A stretch of DNA of 59,481 bases, from the NCBI GenBank assembly GCA_027365835.1, contig DAHXLU010000033.1, positions 1 through 59,481 on the forward strand, read 5' to 3'. The stretch comes from Candidatus Dormiibacterota bacterium. Its GTDB lineage: Bacteria; Chloroflexota; Dormibacteria; Aeolococcales; Aeolococcaceae. A program made the position numbers and the translations under genes. Numbering within the stretch: position 1 is the first letter of the stretch; each line of letters begins with the position of its first letter. This document shows, piece after piece, positions 39,784-44,265 of this stretch. Under the pieces are notes generated by a model that saw only the letters and a program-made list of their open reading frames with translations, made no database searches and was not told where the DNA came from.

Positions 39784-42507
39784 CTATCCATTGGGAACAG
39801 TTGTTGCCGCAGAAGCTGTTTTATGGAGCTCATCCGGGTGCGGGCCGGTCCCATCCAGTCCTCGCTCCTGGCGATCCATTTCCTCCGCCAGCACCTTCCT
39901 GTCCATGCTCCCCTGCGCCACCAGGGAATGCAGCACGCTAAGCACGATGCTCCCCGTGTCGGTACCAAAATAGTGCCGGAGCGCCTCCCTGGTGTCACTT
40001 CGGCCATACCCATCTGTGCCCAGAGGGTAGAAAGGACGCTGGATAAAGCGGGCGATCTGGTCCGGGACTGCTTTCATGTAGTCGGTAACGGCTGTCACTG
40101 GTCCGTCGTATCCCGAGAGCGCCATGGTCAGCCTGTTTTCTCTCCCATCCTCCTCCGGGTGGGTCCGGTTCCATTCCTCCGCAGCCAGCGCATCCCGGCG
40201 CAACTCCAGATAGCTTGTGACGCTCCAGACATTGGCGGCAACCTTCCATCTGCTTTGCAGCTGCTCCTGCGCCGCAAGTGCTGATAGCATCGTCGGGCCG
40301 CTGGCAAAGATCTGGGCATGGGGCCCGGTCGCTTCTGCTCTCCTGTACAGATAGATTCCGGACGTAATTTCATCTGCTGTGAGCCCGTCTGGCATAGGTG
40401 GCATGTGATAGTTCTCGTTGTAGATGGTGATGTAATAGAAAACATCCTCATCGTCTTTGTACATGCGCCTTATCCCGTCCTGGAGTATGGTTGCCAGCTC
40501 GTATGCAAACGCAGGGTCGTAGGTGCGGATATTGGGCAGTACCGAGAACAGCAGGTGGCTGTGTCCATCCTGATGCTGCAAGCCCTCTCCGTTGAGGGTG
40601 GTTCTTCCGGCCGTCCCGCCGAGCATAAATCCACGTGCCCGGGCATCACCGGCGGCCCAGACCAGGTCGCCAACCCTCTGATAGCCAAACATCGAGTAGT
40701 AGATGTAGAACGGTATTACAGCTGTGCGATGCGTTGAATAGGATGTTGCTGCGGCGGTAAAGCTGGCCATCGATCCCGCTTCGGTTATCCCCTCTTCAAG
40801 GATCTGGCCATCCCTGGCCTCCCGATAGGAGAGCAGCATCTTGGAGTCGACTGGGTCATACAGCTGTCCCTGGGGCGAGTAGATTTTTACCTCCTGAAAC
40901 AGGGCATCCATTCCGAAGGTTCGTGCTTCATCCGGGATTATGGGGACAACCAGCTTCCCCAGCCCAGGGTCGCGCATGAGCGCGCGCAGAATACCAGCAA
41001 ATGCAGTTGTCGTGGAGGCCTGCACCGCTCCACTGCCAGCGAAGAAATCCTTCAGAACTGGAGCCGGGGGTGGGTCGATATTGGGACGAACTGGCTTGCG
41101 CTCAGGAAGGGGCCCCCCAAGCTCGTTGCGACGAAAGTGCAGGTATTCCACTTCTTCCGAATTTTCTCCGGGGTGATAGTAGGGCGGATTTCCAGCTTCC
41201 AGCTGCTTGTCGGTAATGGGTAGCTCAAGCAGGTCGCGAAACGCTTTCAGTTCCGCCTCGCCCATCTTCTTGATCTGGTGGGTGGAATTGCGCCCTTCAA
41301 ATCCCGGTCCCAGTGTCCAGCCCTTGACTGTCTGGGCAAGGATCACAGTTGGTCGGCCCGAGTGCGCCGTGGCAGCACGGTAGGCGGCATACAGTTTCCT
41401 GTAGTCGTGCCCACCCCTGCGCAGCCGCACGAGGTCGTCGTCGCTCATCCCCTCAACCAGTTTCTTCAGTCTTGGATCCGGGCCAAAGAAATGTTCCCGG
41501 ATGTATGCCCCAGTTTCAGTGGCGTATTTCTGGAATTCTCCGTCGGGGGTGCGGTTCATCCGCTCAAGAAGCACGCCCTCGGTATCCCGGGCGAGAAGCG
41601 GGTCCCATTCCCGGCCCCAGATTACCTTTATTACGTTCCAGCCAGCACCCTTGAAGGCGGACTCGAGTTCCTGGATAATCTTGCCGTTTCCCCGGACAGG
41701 GCCATCCAGCCGCTGGAGATTGCAAGACACCACAAACACCAGATTGTCAAGTTGCTCGCGGGCAGCCAGTGACAATGCCGCAAGGGCTTCTGGCTCGTCA
41801 CATTCCCCATCTCCAAGAAATGCCCAGACACGGCTCCCTGATGTGTCTGCAATTCCCCGGTGTTCGAGGTACCTGTTAAAACGTGCCTGATAGATTGCAT
41901 TTAGGGGGCCAAGCCCCATTGATACGGTGGGGAACTCCCAGAATGTTGGCATAAGCCGCGGGTGGGGGTACGACGAGAGGCCCTTTCCAGTCACCTCACG
42001 CCGGAAGTGCTCCATCTGCTCTTCACCCAGCCTGCCCTCCAGAAAAGCCCGGGCGTAAATTCCAGGCGCTGCGTGCCCCTGGTAGAAAACCTGGTCACCG
42101 GATCCCTCCCGCTTTCCACGGAAGAAGTGGTTGAAGCCAACTTCATAGAGGGAGGCAGAGGCAGCGTAGGTCGAGATATGGCCCCCGATCCCATCGTAGT
42201 GCTTATTGGCCCGTGTCACCATGACCGCAGCATTCCACCGGATGATTCGCCGGATCCTGCGTTCCATCTCTTCGTCACCAGGGAAACGCGGTTCTTCCTC
42301 GGTGGGGATGGTGTTGATGTAGTCGGTAGACACGGTCGAGGGCATCCCCACGTTCAGGGAGTTGGCTCGCGAAAGCAGCTTTCCGAGGAGGTAGCGCGCG
42401 CGGGCCTGGCCATCTGCCCTTACTACGGCATCCAGCGACTCCATCCATTCATCGGTCTGGTCCGGGTCTATGTCAGGTAGTTGATCCAGGTATGCATCAA
42501 ACGGCAT
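39784..42507 (-). CDS. aceE: Pyruvate dehydrogenase E1, homodimeric AceE type
   Basis: DIDPDQTDEWMESL, GGHISTYAS, FYQGHAAPGIYARAFLEGR, LSSYPHPRLMP, GDGECDEPE, NLQRLDGPVRGN, GEGLQHQDG. Confidence 0.97.
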   Translation of the reverse strand: MPFDAYLDQLPDIDPDQTDEWMESLDAVVRADGQARARYLLGKLLSRANSLNVGMPSTVSTDYINTIPTEEEPRFPGDEEMERRIRRIIRWNAAVMVTRANKHYDGIGGHISTYAASASLYEVGFNHFFRGKREGSGDQVFYQGHAAPGIYARAFLEGRLGEEQMEHFRREVTGKGLSSYPHPRLMPTFWEFPTVSMGLGPLNAIYQARFNRYLEHRGIADTSGSRVWAFLGDGECDEPEALAALSLAAREQLDNLVFVVSCNLQRLDGPVRGNGKIIQELESAFKGAGWNVIKVIWGREWDPLLARDTEGVLLERMNRTPDGEFQKYATETGAYIREHFFGPDPRLKKLVEGMSDDDLVRLRRGGHDYRKLYAAYRAATAHSGRPTVILAQTVKGWTLGPGFEGRNSTHQIKKMGEAELKAFRDLLELPITDKQLEAGNPPYYHPGENSEEVEYLHFRRNELGGPLPERKPVRPNIDPPPAPVLKDFFAGSGAVQASTTTAFAGILRALMRDPGLGKLVVPIIPDEARTFGMDALFQEVKIYSPQGQLYDPVDSKMLLSYREARDGQILEEGITEAGSMASFTAAATSYSTHRTAVIPFYIYYSMFGYQRVGDLVWAAGDARARGFMLGGTAGRTTLNGEGLQHQDGHSHLLFSVLPNIRTYDPAFAYELATILQDGIRRMYKDDEDVFYYITIYNENYHMPPMPDGLTADEITSGIYLYRRAEATGPHAQIFASGPTMLSALAAQEQLQSRWKVAANVWSVTSYLELRRDALAAEEWNRTHPEEDGRENRLTMALSGYDGPVTAVTDYMKAVPDQIARFIQRPFYPLGTDGYGRSDTREALRHYFGTDTGSIVLSVLHSLVAQGSMDRKVLAEEMDRQERGLDGTGPHPDELHKTASAATTVPNG

Positions 42508-42711
42508 GGCGCTTCCTTGGACTGTACAGGTTGATGTTCTTGCTCCCTACAATAGCGCGTCGTTCGGAACCTTGCCCGCCCGGGGCTGCAGCCGTCCTGT
42601 GGCTGCTGTTCCGGCCGCCTGCGAGATGGTGCAGTCCCATTCCCTAGGAGAGTAATCTTTGGACTTATGAATACAGTCACCAGAGACACAGAGTCAACCA
42701 AGGAGAAAACG

Positions 42712-44265
42712 ATGTCCGATGCGCTTGTTGTGCGTTCGCTGATGCACAGTCCGCCGGTTGTGCTGCCATCCTCCATGACTGTGGTGGAAGCATCCCGGTA
42801 CCTGGCAGAGCAGAAGGTGGGAGCGGGGGCCGTGGTGGACAACGGGGAACTGGTCGGAATCATAAGTGAGCGTGACGTCCTGCGTTCGGTTTCTGGGGGG
42901 GTAGACCCCAAGGGGGTTCGGGTCGCAGACATCATGACCAGGAGCCCAGTTACTGTTCGTGAGGATGCTCCGGTCAAGGATGCGCTTGCCGTCTTCCGGG
43001 AGCACCGGTTCCGGCACATCCCTGCTGTTGACGCCGCTGGCAAGGTTACGGGCATTCTGTCAATGCGGCATCTGGTGCCGGTTGCCAATATCGTGGACGT
43101 GAAGGTAGATGGTACCCCGCCGGAGATGGCGCCTCCAGGGCTGGAGGGGGTCAAGGTTGCCGAGACCTCCATCGGTGATGTTCGTGGCGAAGAGGGTTTC
43201 TTCCATTATCGGGGGTATAACGCCGTAGAGCTTGCCAGGCACTGCTCTTTTGAACAGGTGTGGTACCTGTTGCTGGAGGGGCATTTGCCCTCTGACGATG
43301 AGGTAGCTGCATTCCATGCCAAAGCTGATGCTGCGCGCCGGCTCCCGGAAGGGGTGGCAGAGATACTGGACAGGATTGCTGCGCTTCCCCGTTTTGTCCC
43401 ACTCGAGGCACTGCGCTCGGCAGTGTCAGTGACTGCATCCGTGCTGGGGCTGCGCCCCACGCTGGACATAGACGCAGAGGAGTGTCGTGCAGACGCGCTG
43501 CGCATGGCAGCGGTTGTTCCGACCCTCCTTATGTATATGTACAGCCGTCGCAACGGGGTCGAGCCCGCAGAGCCTGAGGCGGACCTTGGCTATGCTGGAA
43601 ATTATCTGAAATTGCTCACGGGCAAGAGACCAACCGAGCGGGAGATCCGTGCCATTGAGAAGTACCTGATCCTTACCATGGATCACGGGTTCAACTCCTC
43701 TACCTTCACGGCCAGGGTGATCACTTCCACCGGGTCTGACATGGGCTCTGCACTGACTGGGGCTATAGGCGCACTGGCTGGTCCGCTGCATGGAGGTGCT
43801 CCTTCCCGGGCACTTGATATGCTGGACGCGATAGGAAGCATTGACAAGGCAGAGGCCTACCTCCGCGAGGAGATTGGAGCAGGGCGCCGCCTGATGGGCT
43901 TTGGACACCGCGTGTACAAGACTGATGATCCACGCTCCCTGCTGCTGCGCGAAGTGGCCCTTGAACTGGGGGGTGAGCAGGCACAGTTTGCTGAGCACGT
44001 GGAGACGACAGCACTGGCGGTGCTGAATGAGTTGAAGCCCGGGCGAAAACTGTATACCAATGTAGAGTTTTATGCCGGGGTGGTCATGAATACGGTCGGA
44101 ATTCCGCGGGACATGTTTACCCCTACATTTGCCTGTTCCCGCACCGTAGGCTGGTCCACAGCAGTGGTGGAGCAAGCTGCGCACAACCGCCTCATTCGCC
44201 CATCTGCGGTCTATGTCGGTCCGTCGGCACCACGTCCGCTGCCAGAAGGCTACCGGTACCGCTGA
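42712..44265 (+). CDS. Citrate synthase (CitA-like) with an N-terminal CBS domain pair
   Basis: CBS: LMHSPPVV..GIISERDV, IMTRSPVTV..FRHIPAVD..GILSMRHL. Then PPGLEGV, YRGY, DHGFNSSTF, GPLHGGA, MGFGHRVYK, NVEFY, RLIRP; AGGAG Shine-Dalgarno. Confidence 0.93.
   Translation: MSDALVVRSLMHSPPVVLPSSMTVVEASRYLAEQKVGAGAVVDNGELVGIISERDVLRSVSGGVDPKGVRVADIMTRSPVTVREDAPVKDALAVFREHRFRHIPAVDAAGKVTGILSMRHLVPVANIVDVKVDGTPPEMAPPGLEGVKVAETSIGDVRGEEGFFHYRGYNAVELARHCSFEQVWYLLLEGHLPSDDEVAAFHAKADAARRLPEGVAEILDRIAALPRFVPLEALRSAVSVTASVLGLRPTLDIDAEECRADALRMAAVVPTLLMYMYSRRNGVEPAEPEADLGYAGNYLKLLTGKRPTEREIRAIEKYLILTMDHGFNSSTFTARVITSTGSDMGSALTGAIGALAGPLHGGAPSRALDMLDAIGSIDKAEAYLREEIGAGRRLMGFGHRVYKTDDPRSLLLREVALELGGEQAQFAEHVETTALAVLNELKPGRKLYTNVEFYAGVVMNTVGIPRDMFTPTFACSRTVGWSTAVVEQAAHNRLIRPSAVYVGPSAPRPLPEGYRYR

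Follow-up and report, generated by a model that had tools for sequence, protein, structure and literature searches.

We analyzed a 59,481-nucleotide stretch of DNA, here called the window, from a Candidatus Dormiibacterota metagenome-assembled genome (MAG; assembly GCA_027365835.1, contig DAHXLU010000033.1), in which a single gene joins a pair of CBS domains to a citrate synthase. The open reading frame (ORF) runs from 42667 to 44265 on the plus strand without interruption, with the CBS pair and a complete citrate synthase in one frame. This architecture had been proposed in an original prediction made from the sequence alone, and both the ORF scan and the Pfam matches to the two domains agree with it. 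The longest ORF begins at ATG 42667, but the true start is probably ATG 42712, because AAGGAG lies 8 nt upstream of it, homologues start at the equivalent methionine, and the database copy of the protein (P0001) is 517 aa long. The fusion gene is accordingly placed at 42712 to 44265 (+), and residues are numbered throughout on the 517-aa protein. The CBS pair (Bateman module) occupies 42733 to 43086 (+; residues ~8 to 125), as delimited by two Pfam CBS matches, PDB matches to CBS pairs, and a structural model. It is followed by a linker at 43087 to 43137 (+; residues 126 to 142), for which the alignments, the model, and the ratio of nonsynonymous to synonymous substitution rates (dN/dS) were used, and by a CitA-type citrate synthase domain at 43138 to 44262 (+; residues 143 to 517), which was assigned from Pfam, the NCBIfam model NF009005, and a PDB match to 2C6X. 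Pfam CBS (PF00571) matched in two stretches with 98.6 bits, the two tandem repeats being above the gathering score, and Citrate_synt (PF00285) matched over profile positions 1 to 357 of 357 (385.3 bits against a cut-off of 27; E = 3.5e-115).

The sequence of the catalytic half places it in the CitA subfamily of small, dimeric, type I-like citrate synthases with a Glu variant of the active site. The motifs GPLHGGA, GFGHRVY, and NVEFY, which the original prediction had listed, are all present in the fusion protein. In an alignment of 52 homologues, the catalytic residues H360, H399, and E452 and the substrate arginines R477 and R496 were invariant, and R400 was conserved in at least 90%. Most synthases read N-V-D-F, whereas the fusion protein shares N-V-E-F with Bacillus subtilis CitA (2C6X) and Mycobacterium tuberculosis CitA (8GMF/6WGY), so the predicted replacement of the catalytic Asp by Glu, as in CitA, was confirmed by alignment to these structures. 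The B. subtilis enzyme was the best solved match (E = 3e-92; ~44% identity), with M. tuberculosis CitA next (~35%), and identity to the GltA-type genes of relatives was only 32 to 36%. NF009005 (PRK12350, "citrate synthase") was the sole NCBIfam model passed by the fusion protein (344.8 bits; cut-off, 332). The score for TIGR01798, which represents the NADH-regulated type II GltA, was well below its cut-off (209.7 against 485 bits). The fusion protein, whose CitA-type active site is intact, is predicted to be active as a citrate synthase. It resembles the CitA enzymes (2C6X, 6WGY, and 8GMF) in its small type I-like domain, in the Glu of N-V-E-F, and in both catalytic His residues. However, the characterized CitA enzymes are without an N-terminal domain, and the fusion adds ~140 residues, comprising the CBS pair and the linker.

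Distribution and evolutionary history of the fusion

In a word-indexed search, approximately 100 protein clusters at 90% identity carried both Pfam domains, with 62 to 78% identity to the query. These clusters derive from NCBI, ENA, JGI, and Logan assemblies, and the named ones are mostly "citrate synthase" of Candidatus Dormibacteraeota. Within the same GTDB class, 78 of 251 sampled genomes hold this synthase clade; about 44 of them have the full-length fusion, 1 has a fused gene with a frameshift, and about 31 have the catalytic part alone (69 to 74% identity). A scan with one genome per species additionally identified approximately 34 MAGs with full-length fusions on the Acidimicrobiia side (46 to 56% identity), labeled Acidimicrobiia, Acidimicrobiales, Microthrixaceae, Ilumatobacteraceae, or Actinomycetota, a few of these labels being evidently misbinned. 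The search for proteins combining CBS and Citrate_synt, which the original prediction had recommended, thus found the fusion widely in both Dormibacteria and Acidimicrobiia. The prediction had also named an assembly artefact as a possible refutation; such an artefact, or one of gene fusion, is untenable because the fusion is conserved over many independent assemblies, including single-contig genomes. Clustering at 50% identity leaves the architecture in only some three clusters out of 1.84 billion representatives. Among unfused genes, those most closely related to it are the CitA-like ones of Streptomyces, Catenulispora, Nocardia, Kribbella, and others. Some MAGs that carry the fusion gene are titled Saccharimonadales, Burkholderiales, or "Actinomycetes" (L058, L060, and L063) though their genes are of the Dormibacteria or Acidimicrobiia type, and such labels of these MAGs are unreliable.

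Among the genomes examined, we found no split version in which a separate CBS gene lies beside the synthase gene. The sole apparent split, in genome G278 (L042:7060-7200, minus strand), results from one extra A in an A run at the linker that shifts the frame, and it is probably either a homopolymer or sequencing error in long-read assembly or a gene that recently became a pseudogene. Other fusions of citrate synthase (P0218, P0244, P0247, P0262, and P0260) were found among the representatives, including an acyl-carrier (PP-binding) domain with a synthase, a synthase with a response-regulator receiver domain, a synthase joined to PTAC (phosphate propanoyltransferase), and an AMP-binding enzyme joined to a synthase. 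Modular additions to citrate synthase are therefore not unique. Automated annotation shows both Pfam domains in the proteins of the present family and names them either "citrate synthase" or "CBS domain-containing protein." In the literature on CBS and citrate synthase or on Dormibacter and citrate synthase, no paper describing the architecture was found. No chain combining the two was found in the PDB, either by sequence search or by fold search with the model, the latter returning only synthase chains. The architecture is thus visible in databases yet uncharacterized, in keeping with the original prediction, whose author knew of no characterized example.

Trees were computed in quick mode, with other Chloroflexota synthases chosen as the outgroup to root the catalytic-domain tree. 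In this tree, the main Dormibacteria clade is sister to an Acidimicrobiia grade. Unfused genes of Actinomycetes nest inside the fused grade with support of 97 to 99 by the Shimodaira-Hasegawa-like approximate likelihood ratio test (SH-aLRT), and unfused genes of Dormibacteria and Acidimicrobiia nest among fused ones. An earlier tree within the Dormibacteria had the same pattern. Parsimony on the catalytic tree gave 8 state changes, which are read as one gain and approximately seven losses of the CBS part. The Dormibacteria genus g115 (loci L033 and L034) groups with the Acidimicrobiia both in the synthase tree and in a separate CBS tree, indicating that the two halves share one history, which includes one transfer between the phyla. 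Taken together, the trees suggest one old fusion that was inherited as a unit and from which the CBS part was later lost repeatedly, with one such loss on the branch to the Streptomyces-type CitA. As to the direction of change, loss is well suggested over multiple gains, although it is not proven.

The CBS module and its predicted ligand

The motif G-h-h-S/T-x-x-D is known to contact ribose in CBS domains. CBS1 of the fusion protein reads G-I-I-S-E-R-D, which matches the ribose motif in the form G-h-h-S/T-x-x-D/N and is invariant, and CBS2 carries F-R-H-I-P followed by G-I-L-S-M-R-H. We compared the CBS parts of 134 Dormibacteria and 34 Acidimicrobiia fusions, which share a mutual identity of only 30 to 43%, and scored residues that were conserved in at least 90% of each set. 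Conserved across both phyla were G49, S/T52, E53, R54, and D55 at the end of CBS1; R101, H102, P104, and V105 in the first strand of CBS2; and G114, S117, and R119 at the end of CBS2. The conserved Arg and His residues fit contacts with phosphate. The synthase domain and the linker had median pairwise dN/dS values of 0.19 and 0.18, respectively, and the CBS part had one of 0.34, although these are rough values because dS was near 0.9. On these comparisons, the CBS module is shown to be maintained by purifying selection with its ligand-cleft residues conserved.

In PDB sequence matches, the CBS pair resembles stand-alone archaeal and bacterial CBS pairs (ST2348, MJ1225, and PAE2072) and the CBS modules of IMP dehydrogenase (IMPDH), with E values for CBS-pair proteins down to 8e-19; KpsF modules were also among the matches, and the CBS structures of OpuCA matched weakly. 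A word-based search with the CBS part alone, an insensitive method, gave 7 matches, none of them informative. In the Dormibacteria, the linker is conserved as HIEEV.PAGS...LAP and, in the alignments, passes directly into the synthase's N-terminal strand. An AlphaFold2 monomer model gave the CBS pair a predicted local distance difference test (pLDDT) score of 80 to 93, with a secondary structure that fits CBS folds, and the synthase a score of ~95. Residues 126 to 161, which comprise the linker and the N-terminal strand, were modeled at low confidence, with a pLDDT below 50 for the linker.

Because both phyla keep the ribose and phosphate motifs in the CBS pair, a synthase gated by an adenosyl ligand is the best reading of these data. 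With moderate confidence, we propose that the fusion protein is a CitA-type citrate synthase whose N-terminal Bateman module acts as a built-in allosteric sensor of a predicted adenosyl ligand. An adenosyl-phosphate compound would bind in the CBS clefts, with AMP, ADP, or ATP as the most likely candidates. Cyclic di-AMP (c-di-AMP) is also possible, as are NAD(H) and coenzyme A (CoA) esters, which likewise contain an adenosine-phosphate moiety. Binding would alter the mutual packing of the two CBS pairs in the synthase dimer. In solved citrate synthases, the N-terminal strand pairs across the dimer, and the short conserved linker, being joined to this strand at the dimer interface, would pass the change to the catalytic domains. 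The open/closed equilibrium or the oligomeric state would then shift, and citrate synthesis would go up or down. In this scheme, what the ligand is, whether it raises or lowers activity, and how its binding is coupled to catalysis are inferences.

Several observations weigh against a sensor of this kind. At position 120, which corresponds to the ribose-binding Asp of the second repeat, 91% of Acidimicrobiia have Asp but 98% of Dormibacteria have His, so that in the latter one of the two sites may be unable to bind a nucleoside. The AlphaFold2 monomer had no confident interface between the CBS pair and the synthase and no confident inter-domain geometry (predicted template modeling score, 0.70). 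The module has been lost at least about seven times, in the Actinomycetes among others, without replacement, indicating that regulation by it is dispensable. Genomes with the unfused gene contained no detached orthologue of the module and only generic CBS proteins of 33 to 36% identity. The ligand is not readable from the sequence, and a CBS pair could also serve solely as a dimerization or assembly module.

Two alternatives bear directly on the function of the module. The CBS pair may be a receptor for c-di-AMP that ties entry into the tricarboxylic acid (TCA) cycle to potassium and osmotic signaling, which we regard as unlikely. According to two reports (PMC8822347 and PMC8549634), the CBS protein DarB of Firmicutes is a c-di-AMP receptor that acts on pyruvate carboxylase, and it places a CBS pair at the oxaloacetate/citrate node. 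DarB/CbpB and OpuCA are known CBS-pair receptors, and OpuCA was among the weak PDB matches noted above. However, the best matches of the module were generic stand-alone archaeal CBS pairs rather than DarB or OpuCA. DarB and CbpB are also separate proteins that act in trans on pyruvate carboxylase or Rel, whereas the module of the fusion would act in cis, and the likeness is one of role only. A diadenylate cyclase gene was found in this genome and in all 16 relatives tested, but it occurs equally in the relatives with the fusion and in those that lost the CBS part. Since there is no co-variation with the module, the cyclase gives no discriminating signal.

The main nonregulatory alternative, which we hold to be about as improbable as control by c-di-AMP, is that the CBS pair is mainly structural and that it dimerizes and drives the higher-order assembly or stabilization of synthase dimers without ligand control. 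CBS pairs characteristically self-associate, the repeated loss of the module fits a nonessential accessory, and the CBS part evolves under a higher dN/dS than the catalytic part does. Changes of quaternary structure have been frequent in the evolution of citrate synthases (PMC11615384), which would also agree with such a role. However, the residues conserved across the two phyla form the ligand-cleft motifs S/T-E-R-D, R-H-x-P-V, and S-x-R-D/H and are not just surface positions, which is the pattern that ligand binding predicts.

As such a sensor, the fusion would be similar to other CBS-regulated enzymes but with a catalytic partner for which CBS control has not previously been described. IMPDH, the CBS-pyrophosphatases, and the KpsF/GutQ arabinose-5-phosphate isomerases likewise have a Bateman module in cis with the ribose motif. 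In IMPDH, however, the CBS pair is an insertion, whereas in the fusion it is an N-terminal extension of a different catalytic partner. The control of citrate synthase classically follows two modes, which are isosteric inhibition by ATP and, in the type II hexamers, allostery by NADH. A Bateman module built in as a sensor, if true, would be a further and modular mode. Allostery by an adenosyl metabolite at the first step of the TCA cycle, as predicted for the fusion, would be shared with the type II hexamer GltA of Escherichia coli. However, the NADH site of type II GltA is made by hexamerization and not by a separate domain (PMC11615384), and the catalytic domain of the fusion is type I/CitA-like. 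A wider proposal, which we consider tenable but short of probable, is that the entire CitA clade of Actinomycetota and Dormibacteria descends from the fused form. The fusion would then represent a third, domain-based allostery of citrate synthase that senses a nucleotide or second messenger in cis, and the Streptomyces-like CitA would have been secondarily stripped of the module. Natural fused and secondarily unfused orthologues with 70 to 74% identity offer a ready comparison for the role of the module.

Metabolic role of the fused enzyme

The fusion gene is the sole citrate synthase gene found in this MAG, which is 85.65% complete. Seven of the 12 relatives examined, one of them a single-contig genome, also encode a GltA-type citrate synthase. 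Because many relatives carry this additional synthase, the fusion protein is likely to be a conditional, auxiliary second synthase of the CitA type, usually present beside a GltA-type enzyme and possibly the only one here. CitA enzymes are likewise usually second synthases beside one of the GltA/CitZ type. The original prediction had described an adenylate gate on entry into the TCA cycle. The CBS pair does carry canonical adenosyl-ligand motifs, but a gate of TCA entry is overstated in view of the GltA-type genes of the relatives and the repeated loss of the CBS part. The hosts of the fusion, Dormibacteria and Acidimicrobiia, are abundant uncultured soil lineages believed to survive on a very low flux of energy, and in such a setting it could be important for an auxiliary citrate synthase to be gated directly by metabolites.

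Taken to its full extent, the original prediction would have the fusion act as an energy-charge gate on the only way into the TCA cycle, co-regulated with the supply of acetyl-CoA by means of a divergent promoter shared with aceE. The aceE gene, which encodes a homodimeric-type pyruvate dehydrogenase E1 (TIGR00759, 1343.7 bits against a cut-off of 859.9), lies at 39784 to 42507 on the minus strand, head-to-head with the fusion gene. The divergent intergenic region at 42508 to 42711 measures 204 bp between the start codons, close to the ~200 bp first estimated. This arrangement and the single citrate synthase gene of the MAG favor the proposal. However, scanning these 204 bp for promoters and operators revealed no sigma-70-like site and no convincing operator, only one imperfect 17-nt inverted repeat at 42577 to 42617. 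The pairing itself is also not conserved, and aceE was rejected as a conserved partner. It was not found within ~6 kb of the fusion gene in 19 other Dormibacteria genomes or within 3 kb upstream in 80 further loci, and in the closest relative (78% identity, L053) one gene intervenes between aceE and the fusion gene. Since the adjacency is not kept in other genomes, it is, on this comparison of loci, a local, lineage-specific rearrangement, and the claimed co-regulation with acetyl-CoA supply is unsupported. The incompleteness of the MAG and the second synthase of many relatives speak against a sole entry point, and the conserved divergent partner in Actinomycetota and Dormibacteria g115 is instead an HTH_17 domain joined to a citrate-synthase-like gene. 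We therefore consider the full form of the prediction very improbable.

Aconitase and two Iso_dh-family (isocitrate/isopropylmalate dehydrogenase) genes are present in the genome of the window, and no MmgE/PrpD gene was found in it, so that the synthesis of citrate is favored over that of 2-methylcitrate. A function as 2-methylcitrate synthase or another acyl-CoA condensing enzyme is the least likely of the alternatives. TIGR01800 (2-methylcitrate synthase/citrate synthase II) gave the highest NCBIfam score and PrpC structures are close structural matches, but this score (360.2 bits) is below the cut-off of 421.3 while NF009005 is above its own, no MmgE/PrpD gene was found, as stated, and the nearest solved relatives are CitA enzymes that were deposited as citrate synthases and have the same Glu.

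Neighboring genes

The conserved divergent neighbor of the fusion family in Actinomycetes, Acidimicrobiia, and Dormibacteria g115 is a distant second citrate-synthase-like gene with ~30% identity. At L033:4961-6136 (minus strand), it carries an N-terminal HTH_17/MerR-type helix-turn-helix (HTH) domain and has kept GSLHGGA and GFGHPLY. The HTH-fused gene also lies upstream on the minus strand, at ~1600 to 2700, in L069, L073, L085-L087, and L094-L133, and it neighbors the CitA-type genes of Streptomyces and Nocardia; it is absent from the genome of the window. By this distribution, the uncharacterized HTH-fused citrate-synthase-like gene, rather than aceE, is the ancestral divergent partner of the fusion family. 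Its product may be a transcription factor that uses the synthase fold as a sensor.

On the other side of the fusion gene, an NrtR-like regulator (Nudix plus NrtR winged helix) at 44292 to 45008 (+) begins 26 nt past the synthase stop and is probably co-transcribed with the fusion gene. Of the relatives, only the closest keeps this adjacency, and other genera lack it. The usual role of NrtR proteins is the control of NAD metabolism, with ADP-ribose as the signal. Directly 3' of the NrtR-like gene, at 45117 to 46948 (+), are an extracytoplasmic function (ECF)-type sigma factor gene (Sigma70_r2/r4) and an overlapping DUF4349 gene, whose product is likely an anti-sigma or membrane partner of the sigma factor. 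Flanking the 3' end of aceE, at 38172 to 39771, are a minus-strand gene for a 4HBT-type thioesterase and a plus-strand gene for a metallo-beta-lactamase-fold hydrolase, and the same pair lies near aceE in the closest relative.

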